From assembly GCA_963812845.1 (NCBI GenBank), contig CAWEWQ010000001.1:1724496-1788495 (forward strand): a stretch of DNA of 64,000 nucleotides, read 5' to 3'. Made by a program: the position numbers and the translations under genes. The notes beneath the pieces are model-generated. The model did no database searches, was not told the origin of the DNA, and saw only the letters and a program-made list of their open reading frames with translations. Source of the stretch: an uncultured Actinomycetes bacterium. GTDB taxonomy: Bacteria; Actinomycetota; Thermoleophilia; Solirubrobacterales; 70-9. This document shows, piece after piece, positions 1,706 through 57,803 of this stretch. Numbering within the stretch: the first letter of the stretch is position 1; the number at the start of each line of letters is the position of its first letter.

Positions 1706-1766
1706 GGCATCTCAGAGGAGAGCCGCAGTCCGGTGTTTCGGCGCCCTCAGTGATGCAACGTGCCGA

Positions 1767-8485: not shown

Positions 8486-8754
8486 AACTCCCCTAGACGA
8501 ATACCGAAAAAGTCTGCGTTTACAGGAAAGTCGCGAGCCTCGCTCCTAATTAGTCGAAAATTGTGCTTGACAATTCGCCAGGGCGGTGATCAGGCTTCCG
8601 CGCAATTAGCCCGCTCCCTCGGAGGGGGCTTCGGTCTTATTCCCCCATTTTGGGAATTTTTTTGAAACCAGACAATTTCCATGAGAAGGAGCTCACCGCA
8701 CTTCCTCTTGGAAGCATTGGACTCGAAAAACCAGTGGTAGTGCATGCGGTGAGC

Positions 8755-9795: not shown

Positions 9796-9894
9796 CGGTA
9801 CATCGGCCTACCCCTATGACTGGTCTGGCTAACTAGCCCGATCTATTATCTAACCGATCTTCGCACCCCGGCGCAACACCCAAAATCTCGACAC

Positions 9895-13292: not shown

Positions 13293-13356
13293 TGCTGGGC
13301 CTCCGAAAATCTTTCGTCGTACGCGCGGAAAGCAGCCGAGCGCTGCAGATCCGTCC

Positions 13357-15881: not shown

Positions 15882-15956
15882 GCTTCCCAGGCTAGGAAGC
15901 GGTGCGGCGGAACCGGGGCGCTCCGGAGTGCCGAAGATGCGGCGAAAACCCGCGGC

Positions 15957-16225
15957 TCAGCCGACCGGCTCTTCGGACCGGACGCCGATCGCGTAGACGA
16001 TCGCCAAGCCCGATCAGAGGTCCCCGGCACCGCGATCAGCGCCGTCGAGAGATCGGTGTCGCCGAGGCCCTTGCCGCTCGCCTCCTGGACGATCATCCCG
16101 AAGACGATCGAGCCGAGGACCGCGCCGATGAAGGCACCGACGATTCCCTGCCAGAAGCGATCGGGCAGGAACACCGTGAAGTGCCAGAGCGCGATTCCCA
16201 TGATGAAGAAGACGAGGAGTGCCAT
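15957..16225 (-). CDS. Small integral membrane protein (about 89 aa), frameshifted
   Basis: MALLVFFIMGIALWHFTVFLPDRFWQGIVGAFIGAVLGSIVFGMIVQ.. then ..LIGLAIVYAIGVRSEEPVG* after frame correction. It lies 6 nt downstream of the secF stop. Confidence 0.4.
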
Positions 16226-16230
16226 CAGAT

Positions 16231-17492: not shown

Positions 17493-19181
17493 GCGTGCCC
17501 AGCAGCGCCTGCGTGAAGACCACCGCGGTCAGCAGCGAGACGATCGTGCCGACCCCGAGGGTGAAGGCGAACCCCTTGACGCCCGCGGTCGCCAGGACGA
17601 AGAGGATGAAGGCGGTCAGCAGGGTGACGACGTTGGCGTCGATGATCGTGCTGATGCCGCGTTTGTAGCCGGCGCTGATCGCGCTCGACATCGAGCGTCC
17701 CGCCCGCACCTCCTCCTTTATTCGCTCGAAGATGACGATGTTCGAGTCGGCGGCGACGCCGATCGTCAGCACCAGCCCGGCGATCCCCGGCAGGGTCAGG
17801 GTGATCGGGATCAGGTCGATCAGGGCGAAGAAGATCACCGCGTAGGCGCCGAGCGCGATCGAGGCGATCAGGCCGAGGAAGCGGTAGTAGAGGAGCAGGA
17901 AGACGATCACCAGCGCGAGGCCGACGATCCCGGCTTTGACGCCCTCGTGGAGGGCTTCGCTGCCGAGGGTCGCCGAGACCTGGGTCTGGCTGATCAGCTT
18001 GAGGCTGATCGGCAGGGCGCCGATCTGCAGGGTCGTCGCCAGTTCCTGCGCCTCGTCGACGCTTCTGAAGCCGCCGGAGATCTGGGCCCCCTGGCGCCCG
18101 TCGATGCCGTCCGGGTTTTCGGAGAAGTTGATGATCGGCCGGGTTTTGACTTCGTTGTCGAGGACGACGGCGAAGTGACCGGAGAGCTGTTCGGCTTCTT
18201 GGCCGGCGACCGGGCCGATCGCCTGGGCCTGGCCGCGCTGGGCGATCTTGCGGGTCACTTCCTGGAAGGCGCTCTGGCCCGTGTCGGTGAAGCCGAAGGA
18301 GACGACCGGTTCGTTGTTGGGCCCGTAGGTCTGTTCGGGGTTGGTGATGTCGTTGCCGCTCAGCGCCGGTTCGTCTTTGAGCGCGTACCAGCCGGGATCG
18401 GCGTCTTCGATCGTTTCCCCGTTTTCGTCACTGGGAAGTTCGGACACCAGGACGGTTCCCGCCGGAACTTCGACGACGATCCCGTCATGCGAGCGTTTTT
18501 TGCCGGTGGCGCTGATGTAGAGGTCCTTTTTCGCCAGCTCAGGCCCGGCGATCAGGTCATGCGGCTCGGCCTTCTCGAAGAGGTAGTAGCGGGGCTTGGC
18601 GACCGAGCACTGTTCGCAGTTCTCGACCGGCTTCTGTTCGGCGGCGAGCTGGGCGGCTTCGTAGGCGGTCGGGTAGGCGCCGGAGAAGATCAGCCGTTTG
18701 TTCTCTTCTTTGGCGATGTTGCGGCCGGCTTCTTCCCAGCGTTTTTCCGATGCTTTGAGGGGACCGGCGGGGGGCTGGATGCCAGGCTTGCCGCCGATCA
18801 CGCGCTCCGGGCCGAGCAGGTTCGTCTCCCAGTCGTAGTAGTAGAGCTGGGCGGTGGTCCCGACCTGGTCGGCGGCGCGGTGCGCGTCGGTGACGCCGGG
18901 CAGGCTGACCGTGATCTGGTCGACGCCCGAGGCGCGCCACCTCGGGCTCGGAGACGCCGAGCTTGTTGATCCGCTGTTCGATGATCGAGATCGAGTCCTC
19001 GATGTCTTCGCCGGAGACTTCGTCGCTGGTGCCGGTCGGCTGCCCCTGGTAGACGAGCTCGAGGCCGCCCTGGAGGTCGAGGCCGAGCTTCGTTTCCTGC
19101 TTCGGCGATGACGATGCCGGAGACGACCACGAGGCCGAGGACGAAGAGCAGGATGAAGAGGTGCCGGCGCCGGTTGCCCAT
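17419..19181 (-). CDS. secD: Protein translocase subunit SecD, frameshifted near the N-terminus
   Basis: MGNRRRHLFILLFVLGLVVVSG.., ..LGLDLQGGLELVYQ.., ..IVGLALVIVFLLLYYRFLGLIASIALGAY..GIAGLVLTIGVAADSNIVIFERIKEE... Confidence 0.85.
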
Positions 19182-19185
19182 CGGC

Positions 19186-19674
19186 CTATCCCTCCGGAGT
19201 GAGGACGAGGAGGAGCCCGCCGTCGTCGTCGTAGGCGGGGAAGACGTCGGCGACCGCCTTTGCCGGCAGGTCGCCCTCGGCGTTCACCGAGACCCGTTTG
19301 CCGAGCGAGCGGACGCCCCACTCGAGAGAGGTCTCGATCGGGTCGCTGACCCCGTCGCCGTTGCTGTCGGCCTCCTCGCCGCCGTCGCCGGGGTCGATCC
19401 AGTCGAGCCCGAGGACCTCGCGCACCGGGCGGCCGATCACGTCCTCGTCGGTCAGCCCGGTCAGCTCGAAGCTGCCTTTGCCTGCGTCGATCACGCGTTC
19501 CTGCTTATCACAGACGAAAAAGGCGGCATTGGGAGCCGGATAATAATCGTCGAGTAATTCGAAGACAAAGCCGAAGCCGCATTTCGAGCAGCCCTTCGGA
19601 CGGGTGCTGAACCCCGCGGTCCTCTCCCCGCTCACCTCCCGGTGTCCGCAATTCGGACAGATGAAAAACGGCAT
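19186..19674 (-). CDS. Zinc-ribbon plus PAS-like domain protein (hypothetical), intact
   Basis: CPNCGH..(17 aa)..CSKCGF, then FFVCDKQERVIDAGKGSFELTGLTDEDVIGRPVREVLG (PAS-like). It lies 4 nt upstream of secD and 24 nt downstream of ruvB. Confidence 0.55.
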   Translation of the reverse strand: MPFFICPNCGHREVSGERTAGFSTRPKGCSKCGFGFVFELLDDYYPAPNAAFFVCDKQERVIDAGKGSFELTGLTDEDVIGRPVREVLGLDWIDPGDGGEEADSNGDGVSDPIETSLEWGVRSLGKRVSVNAEGDLPAKAVADVFPAYDDDGGLLLVLTPEG

Positions 19675-19698
19675 GTTCGACAGGCTAGCGGGAGGGTC

Positions 19699-20790
19699 TC
19701 AAAAGAGGCTTGCCGCACCTTCGGGGGCAGGTAGGCCGAGATGATCGAAAGCGCGCTGAGTCAGCACCCGGCCCCGCGGGGTCCGCTTCAACAAGCCCTG
19801 TTGCAACAGGTAGGGCTCGAGCACGTCCTCGATCGTGTCCTGCTCCTCGCCGATCGCGATCGCCAGGGTCGAGAGGCCGACGGGACCGCCGCCGAACTTC
19901 GTCGCGATCAGGTCGAGCAGGGCGCGGTCGCTGCGGTCGAGCCCGCCGGCGTCGACCTCGAGCATCTCCAGGGCGTCGGCCGCCTCGCGGGCGCCGATCC
20001 GGCCGCTGCCCTTGACCTGGGCGAAGTCGCGCACCCGCTTGAGAAGGCGGTTGGCGACGCGCGGCGTCCCGCGCGAGCGGGACGCGATCGTCTCCGCCCC
20101 CGCCGGGTCGATCTCGACGCCGAGGATCCCGGCCGAGCGCTGGACGATCAGCGCCAGGTGCCCGGCCTCGTAGTACTCGAGCCGGTGGGAGACGCCGAAG
20201 CGGTCGCGCAGAGGAGTCGTCAGCAGGCCGGAGCGGGTCGTCGCGCCGATCAGGGTGAACGGCGGCAGCGGCAGCGTCACCGTGCGGGCGCCCGCACCCT
20301 GGCCCAGCACGACCGGCAGCTCACCGTCCTCCATGGCCGGATAGAGGGTCTCCTCGACCGCGCGCCCGAGACGGTGAATCTCGTCGATGAAGAAGACGCT
20401 TCCCGGCTCCAGGGCGGTGAGGAAGGAGGCGACGTCGGCCTTGCGCTCGAGAGCCGGCCCGGCCGTCTGCACCATCGAGACGCCGAGCTCGGCGGCGACG
20501 ATGTGGGCGAGCGAGGTCTTGCCCAGACCCGGCGGACCCGCGAGAAGAACATGGTCCAGGGGCTCGCCGCGACCCTTCGCCGCTTCGATGAAGACCGTGA
20601 GCTGCTCGGTCACCTGCTGCTGGTTGACGAAGTCCGCGAGGGTCGGCGGGCGTAGGGAGCGGTCGAGGTCCTCGTCGGGCGCCTCGGCTCGCGCGTCGTG
20701 GACTTTGACCTCGGCGTCGACCGGCACCGGCTCGCCCTCGATGCCGGGGGTGCGAATGCGATTGCCGCCGATCTCCGGACCTTCGCTCAT
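19699..20790 (-). CDS. ruvB: Holliday junction branch migration ATPase RuvB
   Basis: Intact 363-aa ORF with [14 protein letters not shown] (Walker A), [10 protein letters not shown] (Walker B) and ..[21 protein letters not shown]... Confidence 0.95.
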
Positions 20791-21380
20791 GCCGCGTTCC
20801 TCGAAGTTCCGGCTTTGCGCAGCGCCGCGGCAACCAGTTCCTCGGGCTCGGAGCCCTCAACCCCGTCGAGGAGCTGCTCGGCCTCCAGCGGCGCGTAGCC
20901 GAGATTGACGAGCCCGTCGCGGGCGAGCGTCCTTGCGTCGCCCTCCGCGGCGCCGACGGCGACCTCCTCCTCCAAGGCCCCGGCCACCTTCTCCCGCAGC
21001 TCGACGATGATCCGTTCCGCGGTCCGTTTGCCGATCCCGGGAACCGCCTGGAAGCGCTTGGCGTCGCCGGCCGCGATCGCCCGCAGGAGATCGCGGTGGG
21101 TGCCGCCGGAGAGGGTCGCGATCGCCACTTTCGGGCCGACGCCGCTGACGGTGATCAGAAGCCGGAAGAGGTCGCGCTCCTCCTCGGAGGAGAAGCCGTA
21201 GAGGGAGAGCGAGTCCTCGCGCGAGATCAGCTCGGCGTGGAGGAAGGCGTCGCGACCGGTGGCGGGTACGGCTTTCAGCGTCTCCGAGGAGACCGTGAGC
21301 CGGTAGCCGACGCCGCCGGCGTCGATGACGACGTGGTCGGGCCGTCGCACCATCACCTCGCCCCGCACCGCGGCGATCAT
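20787..21380 (-). CDS. ruvA: Holliday junction DNA helicase subunit RuvA
   Basis: Intact 197-aa ORF: [45 protein letters not shown] 4-nt overlap occurs at each end with ruvC and ruvB. Confidence 0.95.
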
Positions 21381-21913
21381 CCGGCGATCCGCTCCCCGCG
21401 GCCGGCGGTCGCTTCCTTCGCCACCGCGACAGCGCGCTGGTGGCCGTCGGCGCCACCGTGGCAGATCGCAACGGCCAGAGCGTCGGCGGCGTGATCGGGA
21501 GTCGGCGGCTCCGGCAGCCCGAGCAGGGTGCCGACCATGCGCTGGACCTGCTTCTTGCCGGCCGCGCCGGAGCCGCAGACGGCCATCTTGATCGCCTGCG
21601 GCGTGTAGGCGAAGCAGTCGACGCCATGCTCGGCTGCCGCCAGCATCGCCACGCCGCTGGCCTGGCCGACGGCCATCGCCGAGCGAACGTTCTTGCCGAA
21701 GAAGACCTCCTCGATCGCCATCGCCCGTGGCTCGTGCCAGGAGATCAGCTCCTTCAAAGACCTGTGAATCCGCTCCAGGCGCCGCTCCAGCGGCAGATCG
21801 GGCGTCGTCTCAACCACCCCTCCGTCGAGGGCCACCATCCGGTTCCCCTCCACCCGCACGATCCCAAAACCAAGATTGGCCGCGCCCGGATCGATGCCCA
21901 TCACCACCTGCAT
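21377..21913 (-). CDS. ruvC: Crossover junction endodeoxyribonuclease RuvC
   Basis: Intact 178-aa ORF: VMGIDPGAANLGFGIV..MAIEEVFFGKNVRSA..DHAADALAVAICH. Confidence 0.95.
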   Translation of the reverse strand: MQVVMGIDPGAANLGFGIVRVEGNRMVALDGGVVETTPDLPLERRLERIHRSLKELISWHEPRAMAIEEVFFGKNVRSAMAVGQASGVAMLAAAEHGVDCFAYTPQAIKMAVCGSGAAGKKQVQRMVGTLLGLPEPPTPDHAADALAVAICHGGADGHQRAVAVAKEATAGRGERIAG

Positions 21914-21969
21914 AGGTAGTCATTCTCGGAATCCCATCGGATGCCTGCCGAATCAGGCAATCCGGTCGT

Positions 21970-22052
21970 GGAGGGGGCGGGGGACCTCCTCCAGACACTC
22001 AACATCGAGCCATAGCGAGATGTGTCTGGGGGAGGTCCCCCGCCCCCTCCCC
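21970..22052. repeat. Nested-hairpin intergenic repeat, family 1, copy B
   Basis: Arms 21970-21990 and 22030-22052 form 20 Watson-Crick bp continuous with the 8-bp core stem. The core 21991-22029 is identical to copy A. The element ends 2 nt from the yebC stop and lies upstream of ruvC. Confidence 0.85.
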
Positions 22053-22054
22053 AA

Positions 22055-22804
22055 TCAAGCCGCCAGTTTCTCCAACACGTCCGCCGGAATATCGAAGTTC
22101 GCGTAGACCTCGTCGACGTCGTCCTGATCGTCGAGCGAGTCGAGCAGCTTCAAAACCCGCTCGGCGTCGTGCCCCTTCAGCTCGACGGTGCTTTTCGGCT
22201 CGGTGACCAGGCCCGCCGACTCGACCTCGATCCCTTCGCCCTCGAGAGCTTCGCGCACCGTGGTCAGATCGGTGGGCTCGCAGATCACGCGCAGCTTGCC
22301 CTCGTCCTCGCGCACGTCCTCGGCGCCGGCGTCGATCGCCCCGATCAGGTCGTCCTCGCCATAGCGGCTGCCGTCGACCACGATCGCGCCTTTTTTCTCG
22401 AAGATCCAGGCGACCGAGCCCGGCTCGCCCAGGTTGCCCCCGTGCTTGGAGAACGCGTGCCGGATCTCGGCGCTGGCGCGGTTGCGGTTGTCGGTCAGGG
22501 CCTCGACGAGAACGGCGACGCCCGCCGGCCCGTAGCCCTCGTAGACGATCCTTTCGATCGTCGCGCCGTCGCTTCCGGCACCGGTACCGACATCGATCGC
22601 TTTCTGGATCTTGTCCTTCGGCATCGAGGCGTCTTTGGCCTTCTGGACCGCGGTCGCCAGGGTCGGGTTGCCGCTCGGGTCACCGCCGCCGTCGCGGGCC
22701 GCCACGGTGATCGCCCGCGCCAGCTTGCTGAAGAGCTTGCCGCGTTTGGCGTCGGCGGCGCCCTTCTTGTGTTTGATCGAGTGCCACTTGGAATGTCCGG
22801 ACAT
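22055..22804 (-). CDS. yebC: YebC/PmpR family DNA-binding transcriptional regulator
   Basis: MSGHSKWHSIKHKKGAADAKRGKLFSKLARAI... 249 aa, uninterrupted from the ATG at 22804 within ORF 22055-23218. Confidence 0.95.
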   Translation of the reverse strand: MSGHSKWHSIKHKKGAADAKRGKLFSKLARAITVAARDGGGDPSGNPTLATAVQKAKDASMPKDKIQKAIDVGTGAGSDGATIERIVYEGYGPAGVAVLVEALTDNRNRASAEIRHAFSKHGGNLGEPGSVAWIFEKKGAIVVDGSRYGEDDLIGAIDAGAEDVREDEGKLRVICEPTDLTTVREALEGEGIEVESAGLVTEPKSTVELKGHDAERVLKLLDSLDDQDDVDEVYANFDIPADVLEKLAA

Positions 22805-22828
22805 CGCCTGCCATTCTATGAAGTGCCG

Positions 22829-23264
22829 ATGGGGACGCAGGAAAGAATCCACGAAGCGGGACATGCGCTGGCGGCCGGCCTCGTCTTCCTCGCCATGCTC
22901 GTCGCGGCCTTCTCGCTCTGGACGGCGATCCCGCTGAGCTGGGTCTACATCGCCTCGAAGCTCTCCGAGACCCAGTTCCCGAGTGGCGGCCCCTACGCCG
23001 TGGTGGCGATCGGAATCGTCGCCTCGATCCTCTTCGTCGCCTGGCTGATCGGCCGCCTCAACAACCTCTACATCCGCATCACCGGCACCAACAGGTTGGC
23101 CCCGATTCGCCCGACCTGGCTGAAAAGCATGCGAGACACCGGCGCCGGCCTCGAGTTCGGTGACGGTGGTCGAGGCGGTGCTGATGGCCTCGGTGATGCT
23201 GGCCGCTCTGGCTCTCACCCTCTGGTTCTTCCTCCTCGCCGGCTCGCCCTTGCCGGACCAGTAA
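22829..23264 (+). CDS. Small membrane protein, one frameshift near 23155
   Basis: MGTQERIHEAGHALAAGLVFLAMLVAAFSLWTAIPLSWVYIA..YAVVAIGIVASILFVAWLIG.. then ..LMASVMLAALALTLWFFLLAGSPLPDQ* (stop 23262-23264). Confidence 0.45.
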
Positions 23265-42070: not shown

Positions 42071-42451
42071 TCAGGCGGGAATCTCGGCGCCCGTCAGGGG
42101 GTGCAGCTCGCCGCGGGCCAGCGCCTCCGTGCGCAGGTGGGCGATCGCCTGGTAGGCCTCAGAGCCGATCATCTCGAGGAAGGCCCGGCGATTCGGGTAC
42201 TCGACCAACAACACCAGGTCCCATGAGCGGTCGCCGAGGAGCACGGGATCCGCCTCGCCGGCGAAGACGACCCGCGCCCCCGCTTTCTCCAGCAACGGGG
42301 CGACAGCCGCGCCGTATTCGGCATAGCGCTCGCGGCCGCCGTCGGGGACGAACTCGAGCAGGTTCAACATCGTTACGGTGGTGGTCTCGTCAGCGCGCTC
42401 GTTGAATGCGGCGAAACCGGTTTCGTTGGGTTGCTCGGGCAGCGCGTCCAC
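42071..42451 (-). CDS. DUF1330 domain protein
   Basis: Intact 126-aa ORF: ..VTMLNLLEFVPDGGRERYAEYGAAVAPLLEKAGARVVFAG..WDLVLLVEYPNRRAFLEMIGSEAYQAIAHLRTEAL... Confidence 0.7.
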   Translation of the reverse strand: MDALPEQPNETGFAAFNERADETTTVTMLNLLEFVPDGGRERYAEYGAAVAPLLEKAGARVVFAGEADPVLLGDRSWDLVLLVEYPNRRAFLEMIGSEAYQAIAHLRTEALARGELHPLTGAEIPA

Positions 42452-42540
42452 GGCGGCAGCCTATCGCCGGGACACGGAGGCGGCAGCTCGAGGCTTCGCG
42501 TACATGCCCGCTTTCCTCGCACTATCGTTCCGCCGTCTCA

Positions 42541-45483
42541 ATGGCCGCACCGGGGAAAGAGTTCGAGCAACGCGTCGCGGACGTCTACAGCGCCCTCGGC
42601 TATCAGGTTGTGCAAAACACCCAACTACCGGGCCGGCAGACCGACATCTTCGCCGAGCGCTTCACCCCCGGCGGGCCCCCGATAAGGCTCGTAATCGAGT
42701 GCAAGGACGAAGCGGAACCCGTGGACAACACGGAGACGTTCAAGTTCATCACCAAGACGATCGCCCATCGCGACAGCAAGAGGGTGGACTTCGGCGTACT
42801 GGTAAGCGCCGGCGGATTCACCCACCCGGCACGCGCCGCAGCAGAGGAGCATCCGTTCATTCTCCTGCTCTCCTGGGAGGAACTGAACGCCGACCTCGTG
42901 GACGTTCGCCACCCCCTTCGCAAGCTGGTCACCGACTACGAGGCATCCGCCATCGGCCGGCACTATCTCCCCCTGGCCAGCGAAAAGCTCTCCTGGGCCT
43001 CGCTTGCCCCCGAGGGCTCCCCGCAGACTCTCGAGGACGTTCTCGAGCGCTGGAAATCCCCGCCGGGATCGGATCCCGGTGCCCCCAGCTCACTCTTTGT
43101 GCTCGGAGACTTCGGTGCGGGAAAGACCACTCTGCTTCACCACCTTCAGTACGACCGCGGCAAGGCCTATCTCGCCCAGGAGGACACGCGTATACCCCTC
43201 TTCGTGCCACTTCGGAATTTCCCCGAAATCGGGGACATGGGCGCCCTCCTGAAGGCGAGCTTCCGCGAGTCCTATGCGCGGGAGCTGACCACCGCCCTGC
43301 TCTGGCAGTACCTACGCGAAGGTCGGTTTCACCTCTTGCTGGACGGTTTCGACGAGATGGTCGAGCGCAGCGACGTCGACCGCCGCCTCGAGCTCTTCTA
43401 CCGCCTCGTCCCGCTGCTGCAGACGCACTCCCACGCCATCGTCACCTCCCGGCCCGGCTACTTCGTCGAGCGAGGCGAGCTCGAGGGCCTGCTCGCACGA
43501 TTGGACGCGCAGAGGAGCTCACCCAGCAGCTCGACGCCCCCCGTCGAAGGCGACAGCAGGCTCCCCGCCGGACTCCTGCAGCGCAAGCTCGTTGCGCACT
43601 ACCGCGAGACGCAGCCGGGCCTCGGCGGCGAGGGAACGGCGGTGCCTCCCTACAGCACCGAGGTCTTCCGGCTGCCGCCGCTCAGCAGGAAAAGGATCGA
43701 AGCCTTTCTGGATCGATATGCCGGCGAGTTGGAGGAGGTGGGCAGCAGCCCCGAGGCACTGATGACCTTCATCGCCAAGACCTACGATCTCTGGGACCTG
43801 GCCTCGCGCCCGCTGCTGCTCGACATGATCGTCAGATCCGTTCTGATGAAGGATCTGGATCCGAGCGAGACCGAAGTCCAGTACGGCGCCTCCGGCCTCT
43901 ATGAGATCTACACGGGGTCGGCCCTGCAGGTGGATCTTTACAAGGGAAGGACGCGCCAGGAGGGCCTTCCGACCGAGGTCCGGCGGATGCTCGCGGAGGC
44001 GCTTGCCGTCCACCTGTACGAAGAAGGCGTCCTCGCCGTGGATTTCCACGAAGTGCTGGAAAAGATCCTCCCGCGCAACGAACAGCTGACGCGGGCCCTT
44101 GAGAAAAGCGACTTCTCGACCCGAGAGATCGAAACCGATTTCGCCACCTGCTCGTTCGTCACCCTCGAGCGAGGGGGCAGCTGCCGCTTCATCCATAAAT
44201 CGTTTCGCGGCTTCTTCGTAGCCCGCGTGCTGAAAGCGCATCTGGAGCGGGATCACCGGCTTTTCGACGAGTGGCTGGACAAAGAGACCTTGTACTTCCT
44301 CGGCGGCTTTGCGCCGACCGATCGTGCTGTCGGACAGGCGCTGTGGTCGCGGTTCCAACGCTCCGCCGATCCGACCCGCCGTCGCAACATGCTCGTTGCC
44401 TTTCTCCACACCCAACCGATCCACACCTCGAAACGAATCGACACGGCCGAGGTGGCGGACGCGGATTTCGGACGCCTGAGCTTCCGGCGTTCGCGGATAA
44501 AGGACGTCATGTGGCGACGCTGCGCGATCAGGAAACTCGAGTTGGACCACGTGAAATGGGACAGCGTGGGTTTGGATTCCTCCCGGATCACCCACCTGCA
44601 CGCAAATGAAAGCGACCTCGATCTCGAGGCCTTGGACACGACCTTCGAAACCGTGGAGATGACCAAGGTGAAGAGCGCGCGATTCCGGTGCGACGCCTCG
44701 ACGATCGGCGCCCTCCGCCTCTCCGAAGCATCCCTGGATCTGAGCGGCCGCGACATTCAGATCGATCGCTTCGAGGGAAAGCGATGCGCATTTTCGACGC
44801 TGGACTCCAGGGAGATCCGGATGGGCGAGGTGGACGTCGACCAAAGCCGGATAAGGCTCGACCCCGGATGGGCATTCAAGAGACTGAAGGCAAGCCGAAC
44901 CGTGTTGGGCATGAGCCTCGAAGGCCTGGACAAATGCAGGCTCGACCTGGAGGAGTGCGTGATGAGGATCTCGCCCAAACCGACGCCTCCCGCCATATTG
45001 AAGTCGAGGGGCTTTCCCCTTCGCGATAAGACGAGTTTCCCCCTTCGCGACAAGACGAGGGTCGACCCGCATTCGGTCATTCTCTCTGTCGGCGACGTGG
45101 CCGGCTCGCTCTTGGACATCGGGCCGTGCGGCCTCTTCGGGGCCGTGGGGGATGGTGCTCCCGAGTTCGACCTCGGGCCCTTGCCGAAGGTGTGGGGGGT
45201 CGTCGACCTCGGAGATTCCATCCCCCGGGAGCTGAAAGAGCTCGACCCGGACATCAAAGGGGTTCGCCACGGAAACCTCCTGCTCGTGAGGGGGGCCTGG
45301 TACGAGCGTGAAGCTTTCCCCGGCGGCCGGCTGGCCTCGGTGGATCGATTGCATCGCTTCGCCGTCAAGTCGGCGGTTGACGAGAGCTTCGCCTCCTGGG
45401 ATCTCCTTCCCAGCCTCCTGGCCGCTGTCAAAGCTGAGTTCGACCAGGTGATGGCCGACGACTGGGCACCGCTCCGAAGGTAG
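42541..45483 (+). CDS. STAND/NACHT NTPase with N-terminal Mrr-type restriction endonuclease domain and C-terminal pentapeptide-repeat-like region (980 aa, intact); candidate antiphage NLR-like protein
   Basis: Residues from the ATG at 42541. Nuclease: GKEFEQRVADVYSALGY..TD35IFAE..VIE53CK55D..GVLVSAGGFTHPARAAAEE. Walker A: GDFGAGK195T (43114-43128). Walker B: HLLLDGFDE (43333-43356). NACHT-type ..SCRFIHKSFRGFFVA. About aa 636-810 show period-5 hydrophobic repeats. The gene is lower in GC than its flanks. Confidence 0.8.
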   Translation: MAAPGKEFEQRVADVYSALGYQVVQNTQLPGRQTDIFAERFTPGGPPIRLVIECKDEAEPVDNTETFKFITKTIAHRDSKRVDFGVLVSAGGFTHPARAAAEEHPFILLLSWEELNADLVDVRHPLRKLVTDYEASAIGRHYLPLASEKLSWASLAPEGSPQTLEDVLERWKSPPGSDPGAPSSLFVLGDFGAGKTTLLHHLQYDRGKAYLAQEDTRIPLFVPLRNFPEIGDMGALLKASFRESYARELTTALLWQYLREGRFHLLLDGFDEMVERSDVDRRLELFYRLVPLLQTHSHAIVTSRPGYFVERGELEGLLARLDAQRSSPSSSTPPVEGDSRLPAGLLQRKLVAHYRETQPGLGGEGTAVPPYSTEVFRLPPLSRKRIEAFLDRYAGELEEVGSSPEALMTFIAKTYDLWDLASRPLLLDMIVRSVLMKDLDPSETEVQYGASGLYEIYTGSALQVDLYKGRTRQEGLPTEVRRMLAEALAVHLYEEGVLAVDFHEVLEKILPRNEQLTRALEKSDFSTREIETDFATCSFVTLERGGSCRFIHKSFRGFFVARVLKAHLERDHRLFDEWLDKETLYFLGGFAPTDRAVGQALWSRFQRSADPTRRRNMLVAFLHTQPIHTSKRIDTAEVADADFGRLSFRRSRIKDVMWRRCAIRKLELDHVKWDSVGLDSSRITHLHANESDLDLEALDTTFETVEMTKVKSARFRCDASTIGALRLSEASLDLSGRDIQIDRFEGKRCAFSTLDSREIRMGEVDVDQSRIRLDPGWAFKRLKASRTVLGMSLEGLDKCRLDLEECVMRISPKPTPPAILKSRGFPLRDKTSFPLRDKTRVDPHSVILSVGDVAGSLLDIGPCGLFGAVGDGAPEFDLGPLPKVWGVVDLGDSIPRELKELDPDIKGVRHGNLLLVRGAWYEREAFPGGRLASVDRLHRFAVKSAVDESFASWDLLPSLLAAVKAEFDQVMADDWAPLRR

Positions 45484-45505
45484 TCGCCTCCTCTGAGGGC
45501 AAGAG

Positions 45506-45579
<74 letters not shown>

Positions 45580-45609: not shown

Positions 45610-45975
45610 TCAGGCGCTGAAGAGCTGGGCGAGGGAGCGGCCGACGTCGGGGGGCTCCTCTTCGCCTTTCGCGGCGGCGGCGGCGCCGTCGGCGAGGGCC
45701 TTGGCGGCGTCGGCTATCTGGTGGTCGCGGCCGCCGCGGATCGTGCCGGTCTTCTTAGCTTCGGCGAGGTCGGACTCCATCAGGCCGGCGAGCTCGGCGA
45801 GTCGGCGCAGACCGACGACGCTCGCGGTCCCCTTGAGGGCGTGGGCTTCGGCGCGCATCGTCTCGAAGTCGGTGGTCGCGGTGGCGAGGCCGGCCGAGAT
45901 CACGTCGCAGCGCCGCTTTGCCTCTTCGGCGAAGGACTGCAGGAGCTCCTCCTCGGTTGCTGCTTTCTCGTTCAT
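45610..45975 (-). CDS. Hpt (histidine phosphotransfer) domain protein
   Basis: Intact 121-aa ORF: ..FETMRAEAHALKGTASVVGLRRLAELAGLME.. (HxxKG phospho-His motif). The ATG overlaps the upstream stop (ATGA). Confidence 0.7.
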   Translation of the reverse strand: MNEKAATEEELLQSFAEEAKRRCDVISAGLATATTDFETMRAEAHALKGTASVVGLRRLAELAGLMESDLAEAKKTGTIRGGRDHQIADAAKALADGAAAAAKGEEEPPDVGRSLAQLFSA

Positions 45976-47003
45976 TCGGCGATCGCTTTGTCGACTGCTT
46001 CATGCATCAACTTGAGCCCGAAAGCCCCCTCGACCGCGTCGGCGACGGTGCCCTTGCGATCGATCGTGAACAGAAACGGCTCGGTCGGCAGATGGAACTT
46101 CCGCACCTGGGGCCGGACTCCTTGCGCGGGGTCGTTGTCGTTGTAGATCTCCATGTGGATAAAGGCAGCCTCGTCACCGTATTCGTGTTTTGCCTGCTCC
46201 GCCACGTCGACTACGGGGCCACAGACCCGACTTTGGCAGAACTCGGGGGTCGCAAACAAGAGCACGATCGGTTCTTTTCCCAGCGCTTCCGCGTAATTCA
46301 CCTTGTTCTGATCGGTCGGCGTCTCGATCCGCGGTGCCAGGTCCCCTGGTTTCGGGATCCGCTTGAACTCGCCGACCACGACGCTCGGCAAGGGCGTTCC
46401 CCTGAGCTCTCCGTCCTCCTTGAGGATCGCGGCAATCCGCCACTCCCCGGCGCTGGGAAAGTCGAGGTCGGTCCAGTAGACGACGCGGGCGGCGTCGGCA
46501 TCTTCGGCCGTGCTCTTCGCCTCGAAGGCCGGCTTCGTGGCGAGGCTTTCGATCGCGGCGGGAAAGGGACCGTGGGCCGGCTGGTCGAGCGCCTGTTCCT
46601 GCGCTTTGGCGAGCTGCCCGCGATTGCCGGATTTCGACCGGGCTCCTGATGGCGGGGTCGGCACCTTTGCGTAATAGAGGGCGACTTCGGCGTCGGTGAC
46701 CTGTCCGTGGTCGTGATCGAAGACGCCGAACGGGTAGCGGTTCGAGCCTGGGTAGAAGACTTCCGCCGCCGGGTCGATGACGGATTCGGCGCGTGCGTCT
46801 GCCGCCTTCAGCACCTGGCGCAGGGTCCGTCCCTTGGCGCTGGGGAAATCGGCCTTCGGAGGGGCTTGGCGGCTTTCGGCCGATCCGGGCGCTGCCGTCG
46901 TCGAGTCGGAGCCCGAATCGCTCCCGCAGGCGCTGAGAAGCACCCCGCTCGCGAGCAGGCAGAGCAACGCGGTGGCGAGGCGGGGGGCGCGCATCGGCGG
47001 CAT
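45972..47003 (-). CDS. Secreted thioredoxin-fold (redoxin/SCO-like) lipoprotein
   Basis: MPPMRAPRLATALLCLLASGVLLSACG (lipobox), ..EPIVLLFATPEFCQSRVCGPVVD..EPFLFTIDRKGTV... Uninterrupted from the ATG at 47003. Confidence 0.5.
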   Translation of the reverse strand: MPPMRAPRLATALLCLLASGVLLSACGSDSGSDSTTAAPGSAESRQAPPKADFPSAKGRTLRQVLKAADARAESVIDPAAEVFYPGSNRYPFGVFDHDHGQVTDAEVALYYAKVPTPPSGARSKSGNRGQLAKAQEQALDQPAHGPFPAAIESLATKPAFEAKSTAEDADAARVVYWTDLDFPSAGEWRIAAILKEDGELRGTPLPSVVVGEFKRIPKPGDLAPRIETPTDQNKVNYAEALGKEPIVLLFATPEFCQSRVCGPVVDVAEQAKHEYGDEAAFIHMEIYNDNDPAQGVRPQVRKFHLPTEPFLFTIDRKGTVADAVEGAFGLKLMHEAVDKAIAE

Positions 47004-47053
47004 GTTATGGAGAGATAGGGTGCGCAGGGTTCGCGACGAGAAGGAGATGGGGA

Positions 47054-47785
47054 ATGGCTGAGCGTGCGGCATTGGTGACCGGGGCCTCGAGCGGGATCGG
47101 GCTCGCAATCGCGAAAACGCTCGGAGAAGAGGGCTACGCCCTGACCGTCTCCGCAAGGCGGCCGGAGAAGCTCGAAAAGGCCGCTGAGGGGTTGAAGTCC
47201 GAAGGGTTCGAGGTCGAGCCGATTCCGGCCAACATGGCCGAGGAGGACCACGTCGTCGCCATTTTCGCCGCCCACCGCCAGAAGTACGGCCGGCTCGACG
47301 CTCTCGTCAACAACGCGGGGGTCGGGATCGGCGCGCCGATGGAGGAGATCCAGACCAAGCACCTCGACATGCAGCTGGCGGTCAACCTGCGGGCGCTGAT
47401 CCTCGGCACCCGCGAGGGCCTGCCGATGCTGCGTGCGGCCGGTGCCGAGCACGGCAAGGCGCTGATCGTCAACACGGCCTCGATCGCCGGCAAGGGCGGG
47501 CAGGCCTGGCTCTCGATCTACGCGGCGACGAAGGCGGCGGTGATCAACTTCACCCAGTCGACCCACCGCGAGGCGGGTGGCGCGGGCATCCAGTGCACCG
47601 CATTGGCACCGGGGTTCGTCGAGACGCCGATGACCGAGTTCGTCCAGGGACAGATTCCGCCCGAGGAGATGATCCGGCCGCAGGACCTAGGCGAGGCCGT
47701 CCGCTTCCTCCTCCGCACCTCGCGCAACTGCCACGTGCCGGAGATCGTCTTCACGAGGCCCGGCGAGGGACTCGATACCCCCTGA
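47054..47785 (+). CDS. SDR family oxidoreductase
   Basis: Intact 243-aa ORF: ALVTGASSGIGLAIAK..LVNNAG..NTASIAG..YAATKAAVINFT..ALAPGFVETPM. Confidence 0.85.
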   Translation: MAERAALVTGASSGIGLAIAKTLGEEGYALTVSARRPEKLEKAAEGLKSEGFEVEPIPANMAEEDHVVAIFAAHRQKYGRLDALVNNAGVGIGAPMEEIQTKHLDMQLAVNLRALILGTREGLPMLRAAGAEHGKALIVNTASIAGKGGQAWLSIYAATKAAVINFTQSTHREAGGAGIQCTALAPGFVETPMTEFVQGQIPPEEMIRPQDLGEAVRFLLRTSRNCHVPEIVFTRPGEGLDTP

Positions 47786-51657: not shown

Positions 51658-51762
51658 CTGAGGGTGCGTGTGACCAAGCAGATCAAGGACGCAGGGAGCG
51701 CTGTGTGCTCTGCACACGAGCGACCGAGGACGCCGATATGCGCCGGTCACACGCACCCTCAG
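51658..51762. repeat. Structured intergenic repeat, family 2, copy 2 (between dgt and dnaG)
   Basis: An 18-bp outer stem 51658-51675/51745-51762 includes the dgt stop codon. Block aagcagatcaaggacgcaggg at 51676-51696. Inner hairpin 51699-51708/51712-51722. Block ccgaggacgccgatatgcgc at 51724-51743. Confidence 0.85.
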
Positions 51763-52802
51763 AACCGGGACTCTTCCGGGACGGTCAGCTCGGTGAACTT
51801 GGCGATGCAGAAGCGATCGGTCATCCCGGCGATGTAGTCGGTGACGCGCTGGCAGTCGCTCGCCGTCGGGTCCCACTCGGGGATCTCGCCGGGGTGCTCG
51901 AGGTAGTGCTCGAAGAGGCCGTGCATGGTCCGCTGCACCCGGTCGTGCTCGCTGCGCGCCTCGGGACCGAGGTAGACGCGGTCGAACATGAACTTGCGCA
52001 GGCGCAGCATCGCCCGTCCGATCTCGCGGCCCTGGCGATCTCGCCGGCGCCTTCGGAGTGCTCGACGATGTCGCGGACGAGCGTGTCGATCCGCTGCGAG
52101 CCGGTCGGACCGAGCAGCTCGATCTCCTCGACGGGCAAGCTCTCCTGGCGGCAGGATCCCGGCCCGCAGGGCGTCGTCGATGTCGTGGTTGATGTAGGCG
52201 ACGCGGTCGACCAGCTTGACGATCTGGCCCTCCAGCGTCGCCGGCCTGCGGGAGCCGGTGTGGTTGAGGATGCCGTCGCGGACCTGCTCGGTCAGGTTCA
52301 GCCCGTGGCCGTCGCGCTCGAGCACGTCGACGACCCGCAGCGAGTGCTCGTTGTGGCGGAAGCCGCTGCCGCATCGCTCCCTCAGCGCCGCGTCGAGGGC
52401 CTCCTCTCCGGCGTGGCCGAAGGGCGGGTGGCCGAGGTCGTGGCCGAGCCCGATCGCCTCGGTCAGGTCCTCGTTCAGGCCCAGCGCCCGGGCGACCGTG
52501 CGGGCGATCCCGCAGGCCTCGAGCGTGTGGGTCAGACGGGTCCGGTAGTGGTCGCCCTCAGGGGCGACGAAGACCTGGGTCTTGTGCTTCAGCCGCCGGA
52601 ACGACTTCGAGTGGACGATCCGGTCGCGGTCGCGCTGGAACGGCGTCCGCAACGGGCTGTCCGGCTCCTCCTGCTGCCGCCGCGCCGGATAGGACCGAGT
52701 CGCCTCCGGAGAGAGAAACTCCTCCTCCAAAGCGGAGATGCGCTCCTCGAAGGTGGCAGTGACGGGCACCAGTCGATCATAAGGCGGTCGCCGCACAACC
52801 AT
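51759..52802 (-). CDS. dgt: dGTP triphosphohydrolase-like HD-domain protein, frameshifts near 52000-52130
   Basis: ..[83 protein letters not shown]... ATG at 52802. Confidence 0.85.
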
Positions 52803-52812
52803 CCCCTCTTGC

Positions 52813-52879
52813 GGGGCGAGGGGGAGGGGTTCGCCGGACCCTCCCCGCTGTTGTCCGCCGAACCCCTCCCCCTCGCCCC
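52813..52879 (-). terminator. Perfect 21-bp G/C-rich hairpin 3 nt after the recO stop
   Basis: ggggcgagggggaggggttcg (52813-52833) pairs with cgaacccctccccctcgcccc (52859-52879) around a 25-nt loop. The G-rich arm style resembles repeat family 1. No U-tract is present. Confidence 0.4.
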
Positions 52880-52882
52880 CGA

Positions 52883-53606
52883 TCAAGCCGCAGCGCGCAG
52901 TTGTACGTGCGCGTGGTGCTCGAGCGTCTCGCCGACCGCCCGCTCGACCTGACGCAGGGCGCGAGGCTCGGCTCCGGGCGCCTCGCTCAGCGGCTGCGCC
53001 AGCGCCTCGACCATGAAGTCGTGCGCTTCCTCGTCGAGTGGGAAGGAGCCCGCTTCGCAGCCGGCGCAGACGACGCCGCCGGCGGCGCCGGAGAAGCCGA
53101 CCAGGTGCTCGGCCTCGCCGCAGCGGGCGCAGGAGGCGAGCTCGGGAGCGAAACCGGCGACCAGCGCCAGCTTCAGCCGGAAGGAGAGGGCCGTCTCGAT
53201 GCCCGCCGCCGCGGCTCGCCTGGGTCGTCGAGCAGGGAGAGGTAGCGGCAGAGGAGGTTGTAGGCGGGCGGGATTGGGCTCGGCCGAGTCGAGCAGGCGC
53301 AGGACCGCGTCGCAGGCGCGGGCGCCGGCGGTCAGCGCCGGCCCGGAGGAGCGCAGGCGCGGGTAGCCGTCGACGGTCGTGACGCTGGTCACCGTCATCA
53401 GGTCGCCGCGGCCTTCGTGGAGGATCAGGTCGAGCCGGAAGAACGGCTCCAGGCGGCCGCCGAAGCGGGATCGGTTTGCGCGCCCCCTTGGCGATCGCCC
53501 CGAACCGGCCGCGGCTCTTCGAGTAGAGGTGGAGGATGCGGTCGGCCTCGCCGTAGCGAATGCTGCGCAGGACAATCGCCTCCGTCTTGACCGTAGTTCC
53601 GGCCAC
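52883..53606 (-). CDS. recO: DNA repair protein RecO, frameshifted
   Basis: GTG at 53606: [44 protein letters not shown].. then (ORF 52883-53575) ..[39 protein letters not shown]... Confidence 0.85.
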
Positions 53607-54514: not shown

Positions 54515-54588
54515 GCCGGAGTTCTACTTCATGCCGGCGTTCGTCCTTGGACCGGCATATCGCGTCCCAAGGACGAACGCCAACCGAT

Positions 54589-55559
<971 letters not shown>

Positions 55560-55620
55560 GACGCGCCTGTTTCGCCTCGGCCGCTACAACCCTTGGTCCG
55601 CAAGGGACCGTGCGCAGGCG

Positions 55621-56682
55621 CTAGGTCCCGCGCGGCGAGTGGCGGCTGCGCGAAGAAGAGCGGGTCGTCCTCCAGGTCACCTGCGCCCATCGTGCGTGCG
55701 CGGGAGGCCCGAGGCGCCGTAGGCGTCGAGGTCGACGCGGGCATGGCGGAGTGGACGGCGGTGCCGACAGCCTCGAGGCCGGGCGAGCGATCGGCCCTGC
55801 GCTCCCTCCGGGCACCGGCGACGTCGACCGGGGCCAGGAGCAGGTCGAGGACGGTGTAGGTGTGGTGGCTGAGGTCGCGGTGGCGCTCGCGGGGGTCCGA
55901 GGCGGAGAGGCGCGGGGAGAGCGAGCGTCGGCAGGCGGAGGGAGAGGGCGGCGTGGGCGCTGTCGAGGGCGGCCATGCCGCCGTGGCCGAACTCGGTGTC
56001 GGAGCCGATGATGCCGGGGCCGGGGCCGACCAGGACCGCGTCCCAGCCGAGCTCGGCCGGCGGCGTCGAGGGCGCCGACGGTGCTGAGCGCCTCGTGCTC
56101 GCCGCCGTAGGCCGGCGCCGCGGTGATGTGGCCGCAGAGCAGGCCGCGCTCGCGCAGCTCGGCGACGTCGCGCGAGAGCGAGCCCGGCAGCGCGCCGCCG
56201 CCGGTCTGGACGTAGCCGACCCGCAGCCCGGGCGCGGCCTGCGCCGCCGCCCAGGCCGCCGGCGCCAGGTGGCCGTGCAGCGGCAGGACCACGACCGGCA
56301 CGCCCTCCCCCGTTCCGCGGTTCCTTTGTCCTCTCTATCCGGACTTTCGAACCACGGAATGCTGTCGGACTCCCAGTCGCCGGTGCTCGACCGGCTCGAC
56401 CGGGTGCTGGAGCGAGGTGTAGTTGAGCTTCATCACGTGCGCGTCGCCCTCCGCGCCGCCCCCCTCGAGGCCGCGGGTGAGGTTGACGTGGACGACGTCG
56501 AAGCCGCCGGAGCCGAGCCCGAGGTCGAGCGCGGCGACGTTGACGACGACCTCGTCGCCCTCGCGCATCTCCCCCAGCAGGACCTCGTCGGCCCAGGCGC
56601 GCCGGCGCTCGCCGTCGACCTCGACCTCGAGCGGCTCGGCCGAGACGACGACGCCGCGGCGCAGCTCCAGCCGGCCGCTCAC
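55621..56682 (-). CDS. DUF3866 family protein, frameshifted; 3' end approximate
   Basis: The GTG at 56682 overlaps the upstream stop (GTGA): ..[62 protein letters not shown].., ..[30 protein letters not shown].., ..[15 protein letters not shown]... Confidence 0.65.
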
Positions 56683-57803
56683 TCCCGCTCCGCGGCCGCC
56701 GCAGCGGCGACGATCCCCTCGCAGACCTCGAGCATCTTCTCGAGGCTGCGGGCCGGGACCATCTCGTCGGCGGTGTGGACGGCGTCGGTGCCGTTGGCGA
56801 GCAGGACGCAGTCGAAGCCGTCGCGGCGGAAGACGTTGGCGTCGCTGCCGCCGCCGATCGCCACCCGCCGCGGCTCGAGGCCCGCCGCCGCGCAGCCCCG
56901 CCTCGGCCAGCGCCAGCGCCGGCGAGTCCTTCGGCACCTCGTAGCCGCGGAAGAGCTCTTCGATCCGCACGTCGACGTCGCAGCCGTGCTCGCTCGCGCC
57001 CCAGGCGCAGGCGTCGGCGATCTTCCCCGCCACCTCGGCCGCGCGCTCGGCGTCGAGGCTGCGCGCCTCGGCGTGGATCCAGCAGTGGCCCGGGCACGAC
57101 GTTGCCCGAGGTGCCGCCGGCGATCAGGCCGACGTTGGCGGTCGTCTCCTCGTCGAGCCGGCCGAGCTCCATCCGCGCGATCGCCGCCGCCGCGGCGGCG
57201 ATCGCGCTGCTGCCGTCCTCGGGCTTGATCCCGGCGTGGGCCTCGACCCCGATGAAGTCGGCGAGGATCTTCTGCTGGGTCGGGGTCGCGACGATCACCT
57301 CGCCGACCGGCGCCGGCGTGGTCGAGGACGAAGCCGACCCGCGAGCGCAGCTGCGAGGCGTCGAAGGCCTTCGCCCCGCGCAGCCCCTGCTCCTCGGCGA
57401 CGGTCAGCACCAGCTCGATCCCGACCGGCGCCGGGCCGTTCGACGTGGCGGGCGACCAGCTCCATGAAGACCGCGACCGCGGCCTTGTTGTCGGCGCCGA
57501 GGATCGTCTCGCCGCGGCTGCGGAAGACGCCTTCGTCGTTCGACCACCTCGACCTGGCCCCGGTGCGGGACCGTGTCGACGTGGGCGCAGAACATCACCC
57601 ACTCCTCGCCGCTCCCGGCGAGCCGCGCCAGCAGGTTGCCGGCCCCGGCTTCGGCCGGACCGGCGGCGTCGTCCTCGCTCACCTCGAGCCCCAGCGCCCG
57701 CAGCTCGGCGGCGAGGGTGTCGGCGATCTCGCGCTCCTCGCCGGTCGGGCTGCGGATCTCGCAGAGCCGGACGAAGGTCTCGTGCAGCCGGGATCTCCTC
57801 CAT
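56679..57803 (-). CDS. M20/M25/M40 family metallopeptidase (PepT-like), frameshifted
   Basis: MEEIP.., ..[24 protein letters not shown].., ..[20 protein letters not shown].., ..[18 protein letters not shown].., ..[23 protein letters not shown]... Confidence 0.7.

Follow-up and report, generated by a model that had tools for sequence, protein, structure and literature searches.

The stretch of DNA analysed here, which we call the window, comprises 64 kb of a contig from an uncultured Actinomycetes bacterium of the order Solirubrobacterales; all coordinates are those of the window. At 42541–45483, on the plus strand, lies a single gene whose product combines an N-terminal Mrr-type nuclease, a central NACHT NTPase, a beta-solenoid and a further C-terminal domain (Table 1). 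The open reading frame (ORF) runs uninterrupted through 980 codons to a stop codon, as a preliminary description of this DNA had stated, and an identical protein (P0001), encoded on a 2.45-Mb contig, was found on record in the protein-cluster search. The gene is transcribed divergently from DUF1330 and short-chain dehydrogenase/reductase (SDR) genes, in agreement with that description; at its other end, 21 nt rather than the 22 nt first given separate the stop codon from the 3′ end of a tRNA-Met gene. Rfam returned nothing beyond two tRNAs. The impression that the gene is AT-richer than its flanks is borne out by its GC content, the lowest of any 3 kb in the window (0.637, rank 1 of 306; median 0.692), and its GC at third codon positions (GC3) is 0.81 compared with 0.87–0.93 for most neighbours.

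The longest open frame spans 42406–45483, and the 980-aa version of the protein starts from the ATG at 42541. We prefer this start because the N-termini of the family begin just before the GKxFExRV helix (in the consensus of the 51-relative alignment, a few residues and then the helix), and because the 45 upstream codons would run into the divergent DUF1330 gene, which starts at 42451 and is separated from the ATG by an 89-nt spacer (42452–42540). The upstream extension is probably untranslated. A scan found no sigma-70-like promoter, the scan being centred on sigma-70 and E. coli and ill-suited to this lineage.

Domain architecture of the protein

Both enzymatic modules named in the preliminary description score above their Pfam cut-offs. 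Mrr_cat (PF04471) matches aa 4–115 with E = 3.5e-11 (43.7 bits, cut-off 21), and NACHT (PF05729) matches aa 185–307 with E = 5.3e-11 (43.1 bits, cut-off 26.7). Residue conservation was read from an alignment of 51 family members. Within the nuclease, D35 and E53 do not vary, and conservation at E9 and K55 is at least 90%. The Walker A sequence GDFGAGK195TT lies inside the Pfam NACHT match, with G192, G194, K195 and T197 invariant, while the Walker B/NACHT signature LLLD268-G-F-D271-E272 shows no variation at D268, F270, D271 or E272 and at least 90% conservation at G269. This D-G-F-D-E sequence fits exactly the D[GAS]hDE signature that separates NACHT from other signal transduction ATPases with numerous domains (STANDs) (Kibby et al., bioRxiv 10.1101/2022.07.19.500537). 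The sensor-1 residue R304 is invariant or at least 90% conserved, and the winged-helix histidine H552 in FIHKSFRGFF, the equivalent of NLRC4 H443, is invariant. All the nuclease, Walker and winged-helix motifs originally quoted are thus present and kept in the 51 members at these levels.

A PDB sequence search with the single protein gave chance matches alone. We modelled the full-length protein with AlphaFold2 and the family alignment (mean predicted local distance difference test score (pLDDT) 83.1, predicted template modelling score (pTM) 0.73). The model consists of an alpha/beta nuclease (residues 1–120, pLDDT 82–94), a P-loop domain, helical and winged-helix domains up to about residue 625, an all-beta segment (627–811), a linker (812–840) and an alpha/beta domain (841–980); an insert in the NACHT module, aa 311–370, is disordered with low pLDDT. 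The best Foldseek matches in the PDB are nucleotide-binding, leucine-rich-repeat receptors (NLRs), namely NOD2 (5irm, E = 2.5e-10), NLRP3, NLRP9, NLRC4 and related proteins (to 1e-7), followed by Avs4 bound to a phage portal (8dgf, E = 5e-6) and, below it, Cdc6/ORC proteins. The NOD2, NLRP3 and NLRC4 alignments span the nucleotide-binding, helical and winged-helix domains of the model, with E values of 1e-10 to 1e-8. As NLRs top this list, the central module is a true NACHT rather than simply a P-loop domain, and the three-module architecture first proposed is supported by the Pfam domains, the model and the fold search.

In the repeat region, hydrophobic residues recur at lags of 5, 10, 15 and 20 (lag-5 autocorrelation 0.40, z = 5.5, matched by 0 of 5000 shuffles). 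The claim of at least 12 unbroken pentads holds if Ala is counted as a central residue (13), and fails with L/I/V/F/W/M alone (10). Coils in the model are 19–20 residues long and follow the pattern h-x-h-x-x / x-x-h-x-x, with a column entropy near 0 at inward and >3 bits at outward positions. The region as a whole has an entropy of 2.5 bits, compared with 1.45 in the NACHT module, its inward positions being conserved and its outward ones nearly free. The Pfam pentapeptide check proposed with the original claim (PF00805/PF13599) gave scores below the cut-off or no match: Pentapeptide_4 reaches 15.1 bits in the window protein and 17.7 in the isolated C-terminus against a cut-off of 38, and PF00805 does not match the window protein. 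The family as a group gives a clearer signal, with sub-threshold Pentapeptide_4 matches in 16 of 31 C-termini (best E = 2e-6) and with AlbG (7e-5), EfsQnr (1.5e-4) and MfpA (5e-3) retrieved from the PDB by the C-terminal alignment profile. The first coils also align (hhalign, E = 3.6e-5) with the segment just before the canonical pentapeptide repeats of a distant Mrr–NACHT relative, P0079.

A separate model of aa 611–980 (pLDDT 88.5, pTM 0.87) again shows a confident solenoid, and most of its best PDB matches in Foldseek are pentapeptide proteins (AlbG, HetL, EfsQnr, QnrB1 and MfpA). AlbG and HetL each have a Foldseek probability of 0.99, but the matches are weak (best E = 4e-3, TM 0.37–0.41, root-mean-square deviation 8–9 Å). 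The D/N usual at position i−1 is mostly absent from the repeat. We conclude that aa 627–811 form a beta-solenoid of the pentapeptide type, divergent in sequence and with about nine coils of 20 residues, and not a canonical Pfam pentapeptide protein; the coil length and the matches suggest that the solenoid may be four-sided or flattened in section. The pentapeptide beta-helix originally proposed is therefore upheld by the periodicity, the family profile and the fold search, and not by Pfam significance for the window protein alone or by a close match to a solved structure.

The linker that follows the solenoid contains an imperfect 24-nt tandem duplication (45006–45053, 79% identity), which is in frame, encodes FPLRDKTS/FPLRDKTR and constitutes an insertion relative to 54% of family members. 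In the C-terminal domain, G864-x-F866-G867 and W885-G886 are invariant and W975 is conserved. No recognisable feature had been seen in this region, and the searches agree: the domain profile has no PDB match at E ≤ 10, a Pfam scan of the family C-terminal regions returned pentapeptide families alone, and a comparison of the C-terminal model with viral predicted structures gave nothing significant. A HMMER scan of 1.84 billion cluster representatives with the domain profile found 46 proteins, of which those examined have the Mrr–NACHT–solenoid architecture or are a spurious satellite translation, and the remainder are of the length of family members or of fragments and are matched at their C-terminal end. 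Because the real matches all belong to the family or to fragments, the domain appears exclusive to it; the same scan found no such sensor on another effector. The spurious match, P0106 (1196 aa, 14 matches to the profile), was rejected as a translated tandem satellite repeat containing PGVFGAF, and illustrates that a short G-x-F-G motif can drive a false profile match.

Table 1. Features of the gene and its immediate flanks in window coordinates
Feature	Position	Strand	Basis or remark
In-frame upstream extension, 45 codons	42406..42540	+	overlaps start of divergent DUF1330 gene and 89-nt spacer
Complete ORF (Mrr nuclease, NACHT NTPase, beta-solenoid, C-terminal domain)	42541..45483	+	ORF list, Pfam, AlphaFold model
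Mrr_cat PD-(D/E)xK nuclease effector, aa 1–120	42541..42900	+	PF04471; E9, D35, E53-x-K55
NACHT module, aa 181–625: P-loop nucleotide-binding, helical and winged-helix domains	43081..44415	+	PF05729
Beta-solenoid, about 9 coils of about 20 residues, aa 627–811	44419..44973	+	pLDDT 93–99; presumed sensor surface
Disordered linker, aa 812–840	44974..45060	+	pLDDT <50; gapped in 54% of family members
Family-specific alpha/beta C-terminal domain, aa 841–980 (140 aa)	45061..45480	+	motifs, model
tRNA-Met(CAT)	45505..45579	-	ARAGORN and Rfam; 3′ end faces the gene's stop codon

A variable slot at tRNA-Met and the relatives of the gene

The immediate neighbours of the gene encode two SDRs, a DUF1330 protein, an Hpt protein, a glycosyltransferase and two unannotated proteins; further out lie DnaG, an HD/dGTPase-type protein, RecO, a Xer-type recombinase, CTP synthase (PyrG) and glutamate-mutase-like genes. 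A metagenome scan seeded with the 394-aa gene (p394) across the tRNA gave 80 syntenic loci at 59–79% identity. The p394–Hpt–tRNA-Met block is present in about 70 of them and is followed by the SDR/p459 block in 40, with an interval of 1.35–5.4 kb between the two; the Mrr–NACHT gene occurs in none of the 80. The accessory genes that the slot holds form recurring clusters (a PAS-PAS-LuxR regulator, a chromate transporter, DUF3618 proteins, a Holin-X family protein and an FKBP); two unannotated ORFs, one of 832 aa without a Pfam match and one of 1110 aa, occur there too. Other cargo is found once only, and at one such locus (L100, 12098–13415) the slot contains a Cap15-type effector (PF18153 and PF23471) of a cyclic-oligonucleotide-based antiphage signalling system beside a deoxynucleoside kinase; no cyclase search was made there. 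None of the recurring cargo clusters C1–C9 occurs anywhere in the window, and the two-member cluster C10 has a short match at the start of the DUF1330 gene.

In the flank alignment, the 3′ end of tRNA-Met is the exact point at which sequence identity among the syntenic relatives stops. Neither an integrase within the slot nor att-like repeats were found, and on these grounds we reject a classical integrative island at the tRNA. We favour an insertion or replacement the size of one gene, in a variable slot anchored at the tRNA, with the GC3 of the gene partly ameliorated; no close donor has been sampled, as the nearest homologue is just 52% identical. Horizontal acquisition at the tRNA, suggested from the outset, is thus supported by the low GC, the absence from all 80 syntenic relatives and the homology break.

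The ORF list of this region also merits some caution. The 394-aa ORF (45972–47156, minus strand) overlaps the start of the opposite-strand SDR gene (47054–47785, plus strand) by about 100 nt, and its homologues align from about residue 35–40 onward; its true start is probably downstream, near MPPMRAPRLATALL, which is signal-peptide-like. The ORF at 54524–57298 (minus strand) is a composite of M20_dimer, DUF3866 and Xer-type integrase matches, and matches to RecO_N and to HD/HD_assoc both fall in that at 51762–53606. With a GC content of 70%, the window has several composite ORFs of more than 700 aa, and lists of ORFs made mechanically exaggerate gene lengths here.

Relatives of the protein were sought in 5.8 billion protein clusters and in a species survey of one genome for each of 185,579 species. 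The family has about 70 members, with P0001 and about 66 full-length relatives of 960–1040 aa that are 37–52% identical at about 99% query coverage. The few named relatives come from metagenome-assembled genomes (MAGs) of Thermoleophilaceae or Solirubrobacterales, and the species survey placed full-length relatives in nine species, all of them uncultured Solirubrobacterales, Thermoleophilaceae or 'Actinomycetes' MAGs. Matches in Planctomycetota, Chloroflexota and Alphaproteobacteria cover the N-terminal 600–770 aa alone at 25–30% identity. Plasmids yielded 14 distant matches, three of which, on Rhizobium megaplasmids, cover aa 5 to about 701–772, and phage genomes yielded no homologue. One family locus (L018, 10001–12907) is covered by tblastn over query residues 4–980, and the candidate called product there, P0072, has 596 aa, no Pfam match and the C-terminal domain; this gene may be frameshifted or split, or may reflect an assembly error.

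Relatives share on average 48% of residues with the window protein in the nuclease and 50% in the NACHT module, compared with 24% in the beta-helix and 28% in the C-terminal domain. The same pattern, in which the core is conserved and the C-terminus evolves fast, has been reported for bNACHT01-like proteins (Kibby et al., bioRxiv 10.1101/2022.07.19.500537). This variability of the sensor is supportive but not proof, because any solenoid with a free surface would vary alike.

Seven long contigs carry family members, and no neighbour gene is conserved among them. On one (L002), the homologue P0006 stands between a Dnd-type cluster (1–9829: SMC-like DndD, DndE, cysteine desulfurase and a HATPase_c_3 protein) and TcpC/TcpE/AAA_10 conjugation genes (13057–22931), a setting that is probably an integrative conjugative element. 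On another (L001), from a Solirubrobacterales MAG, the flank contains a second Mrr–STAND gene (Mrr_cat with AAA_16/nSTAND5, 4390–6393) and an extracytoplasmic function sigma factor. A second Mrr–STAND gene (Mrr_cat with nSTAND3, 5516–7804 of L115) also lies next to or near the Mrr–NACHT–repeat gene of a Rhizobium gallicum conjugative plasmid, and its occurrence in two unrelated lineages could be a recurrent pairing or a clustering of similar defence genes. The other flanks contain an integrase fragment, two tRNA-Ala genes and an RHS toxin (L007), PIN-RHH and Fic genes (L004), a baeRF-family gene (L008) or ordinary metabolic genes (L006 and L009). In three of the seven contigs a tRNA lies ≤1.3 kb upstream of the family gene.

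Proposed function and rival explanations

We propose that the protein is probably, though with moderate confidence, a stand-alone bacterial NLR-related (bNACHT-type STAND) immune protein with an antiphage role. At rest, an ADP-bound NACHT would hold the protein monomeric and its N-terminal Mrr-type PD-(D/E)xK nuclease inactive. Upon infection by a phage or another invading element, the variable C-terminal sensor, consisting of the roughly nine-coil pentapeptide-type beta-helix and the 140-aa family-specific domain, would recognise a trigger. The NACHT would then exchange its nucleotide and oligomerise in an NTP-dependent manner, bringing the nuclease domains together, and the clustered domains would cleave DNA, so that the invader is destroyed or the infected cell is killed (abortive infection). 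We infer the antiphage role, the oligomerisation-driven activation, the DNA substrate and the trigger-binding part of the C-terminus in this scheme. The antiphage role is suggested by the intact catalytic and NTPase motifs, the NACHT fold and the conserved core with a variable sensor, by the patchy, lineage-restricted distribution and the insertion in a variable tRNA-flanking slot, by the Dnd/conjugation, second Mrr–STAND, integrase-fragment, toxin–antitoxin, Fic and RHS genes that flank some relatives, and by the presence of distant relatives on conjugative Rhizobium plasmids. There is also experimental precedent, as bNACHT25 and bNACHT32, two restriction endonuclease (REase)–NACHT proteins, give E. 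coli protection from T2, T4, T6, lambda and MS2, and the nuclease-dead D48A substitution rescues the toxicity of a hyperactive mutant of the winged-helix histidine of bNACHT25; pentapeptide repeats are among the predicted bNACHT sensor types (Kibby et al., bioRxiv 10.1101/2022.07.19.500537).

Several observations weigh against this proposal. The PADLOC run suggested as a check returned no whole-protein model for the window protein and the 51 members, only Mrr-domain matches (PDC-S02 and ZorD), and NCBIfam gave nothing above noise for the window protein. The tested bNACHT25 is distant, with 24% identity over 93 aa around the P-loop. Some family members match PF22722 (NA-iREase1), the Pfam class of NACHT-associated inactive REase domains, so the fold alone cannot establish nuclease activity; the window protein itself has no PF22722 match at E ≤ 1 and its catalytic residues are intact. 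The surroundings of the gene are core chromosome, its core and metabolic neighbours do not support a defence-island context at this locus, and most cargo of the tRNA-Met slot in relatives consists of ordinary accessory genes. Enrichment of the homologues next to defence genes, which had been put forward as a check, was likewise not seen: the neighbourhoods vary, and among 120 ORFs within 7 kb of 12 loci no family among the best 25 PADLOC families listed occurs in more than three ORFs, the best matches being generic (winged helix–turn–helix 'Csa3' regulators, and Ser/Thr kinases that match every kinase-based model). The gene is thus solitary and mobile-looking, with no defence-island enrichment in these 120 ORFs for the best 25 families. 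The initial call of a defence protein retains the precedent of the tested REase–NACHT relatives, and has against it the missing PADLOC and NCBIfam whole-protein match and the core surroundings.

The same effector could also be triggered indirectly, with the beta-helix/C-terminal module guarding a host process or acting as bait; in a specific form of this explanation, phage DNA-binding or anti-restriction proteins would bind the helix as a mimic of DNA. bNACHT25 detects the MS2 coat protein via the host chaperone DnaJ (PMC12169576). The closest relatives of the repeat are the DNA-mimicking gyrase binders AlbG, EfsQnr, QnrB1 and MfpA, and pentapeptide repeats may inhibit DNA-binding proteins (Kaur et al., PMC7159879). 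However, the helix is not consistently acidic: its net charge is −1 in the window protein and −7.4 on average in the family, with a range of −19 to +3 that rules out DNA mimicry as a conserved property. Moreover, the fold similarity to the gyrase-binding proteins is weak (TM ≤0.41), and the hypervariable outward residues fit diverse foreign ligands better than a conserved host partner. We consider indirect sensing unlikely, while giving it some weight.

Antiphage defence could be the wrong target altogether, in that a STAND of this kind might serve conflict or programmed cell death directed at plasmids or integrative conjugative elements, kin discrimination or stress suicide in soil actinobacteria. 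Surveys by the Aravind laboratory tie NACHT/STAND proteins with repeat sensors to conflict systems of multicellular and filamentous bacteria (PMC7159879), and both the homologue in or beside a conjugative element (L002) and the lack of measurable defence-island enrichment would agree with such a role. On the other hand, the REase–NACHT proteins tested so far are all antiphage (Kibby et al.), no partner genes are conserved, and a sparse, lineage-restricted distribution with a variable sensor is equally typical of antiphage genes, which makes this a rather unlikely explanation.

It is improbable, given that the helix charge is not consistently acidic across the family, that the helix is a decoy imitating duplex DNA, to be seized by phage anti-restriction, end-protection or replication proteins, with the C-terminal domain reading this out and releasing the NACHT. 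If true, the protein would be an NLR that detects DNA-binding activity through a nucleic-acid mimic instead of a protein fold.

Several homologues are named 'restriction endonuclease' in their sources and one of the 51 members has a weak PADLOC mREase_IV match, as might be expected of an NTP-dependent, modification-dependent (type IV-like) restriction enzyme whose Mrr domain itself recognises and cuts modified DNA and whose NTPase is a motor or regulator. The NTPase is, however, a NACHT switch with NLR-like helical and winged-helix domains and not a McrB- or helicase-type motor, Pfam detected no Mrr_N-type DNA-reading domain, and about 350 aa of variable sensor would have no role; we judge this reading very improbable. 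An equally slight chance attaches to an inert passenger, an acquired gene no longer expressed or functional in its host, to which the missing promoter-like site, the solitary position in a core region and the imperfect 24-nt duplication might point, but the ORF runs through 2.9 kb of a high-GC genome without interruption and has every catalytic and nucleotide-binding residue intact, the duplication is in frame and sits in a disordered linker of family-wide variable length, and the sigma-70/E. coli-centred promoter scan is uninformative for this lineage.

The innate immune receptors of animals and plants have their prokaryotic counterparts in the NLR-like proteins of bacteria. To our knowledge, how the very diverse sensors of these bacterial proteins recognise infection has been worked out for only a handful, namely the tetratricopeptide-repeat (TPR)-like sensors of Avs and bNACHT25 via DnaJ, and we know of almost no phage-defence biology in Solirubrobacterales/Thermoleophilia, a poorly studied soil lineage. 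As a candidate antiphage bNACHT, the protein described here would offer a compact, confidently modelled pentapeptide-type beta-solenoid sensor, of a class that has been catalogued and for which we found no tested case in the literature, joined to a domain found nowhere else. The family goes unrecognised by the PADLOC v2 and NCBIfam models, a shortcoming that a profile based on the alignment of 51 sequences would remedy. In practice this is a modest benefit, and should the defence role fail, this would be one more uncharacterised STAND protein.

Comparison with known systems

The preliminary description could not place the protein in a named system. With its Walker A motif, D[GAS]hDE signature, winged-helix histidine and predicted NLR fold, the window protein has the sequence and modelled fold features by which the NACHT clade is defined, which puts it among proteins of the bNACHT kind. 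The closest tested counterparts in layout are bNACHT25 and bNACHT32 of E. coli (clade 6, REase with NACHT and NCH1), which, like the window protein, combine in a single gene an N-terminal REase-fold effector, a central NACHT and a C-terminal sensor, and whose conserved winged-helix histidine corresponds to H552. Similarity to bNACHT25 is nevertheless confined to the stretch around the P-loop and Walker B given above, the host phylum differs, and bNACHT25 is a protein of 752 aa with a short helical NCH1 in place of the 185-aa beta-solenoid and 140-aa alpha/beta domain found here.

Other clades resemble the protein in part. REase effectors occur in clades 2, 3 and 6 and pentapeptide sensors in clade 9 (Kibby et al., bioRxiv 10.1101/2022.07.19.500537). 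The effector–NTPase layout of clade 2 is the same, for example in a Kibdelosporangium protein (Mrr_cat 16–132, NACHT 233–703) and in a REase–NACHT protein of Planctomycetes. Clade 9 has NACHT with pentapeptide repeats in cyanobacteria, the same class of sensor, a likeness that we drew by architecture. In Table S1 of Kibby et al., no row joins Mrr_cat/REase, NACHT and pentapeptide, and there is no Thermoleophilia or Solirubrobacterales entry; the domain key of their Figure S3, which covers the tested proteins, includes no pentapeptide sensor. In its main text, a STAND survey (PMC13581612, Nature 2026) does not mention pentapeptide sensors either.

The three-part architecture is not unique, because Mrr_cat–NACHT–pentapeptide proteins exist elsewhere. 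P0079, P0083 and WP_167377947.1, the last from a Rhizobium gallicum plasmid and annotated 'restriction endonuclease', are unnamed proteins with the same module order and are 24–31% identical to the window protein across the nuclease, the NACHT and the first repeat coils. They belong to other phyla and plasmids and are without the family C-terminal domain. Their repeats are canonical or differently extended (with WD40 in P0083), and in P0079 and P0083 they score above the Pfam pentapeptide threshold, unlike those of the window protein.

Avs3 and Avs4 are likewise single polypeptides in which a PD-(D/E)xK/Mrr-like nuclease at the N-terminus is followed by a STAND NTPase and by a sensor at the C-terminus, and the activation proposed here follows the ligand-induced oligomerisation model that Gao and colleagues reportedly put forward for Avs in 2022. 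Although the structural match to Avs4 is significant, NLRs match far better, and the NTPase of the window protein is of the NACHT clade. The sensors differ as well, being alpha-helical and TPR-like in Avs and an all-beta solenoid here, and the PADLOC Avs models match none of the 51 members. As for the solenoid itself, aa 627–811 share with AlbG, McbG, Qnr, MfpA and HetL the five-residue periodicity, the inward hydrophobic residues and the coil of about 20 residues, whereas the gyrase-binding type is free-standing and the helix here is one domain of a 980-aa NLR-like protein. In summary, REase effectors and pentapeptide sensors are already catalogued, separately, among bNACHTs, and what is new is a coherent Solirubrobacterales/Thermoleophilia subfamily with a strongly diverged helix and a private C-terminal domain.

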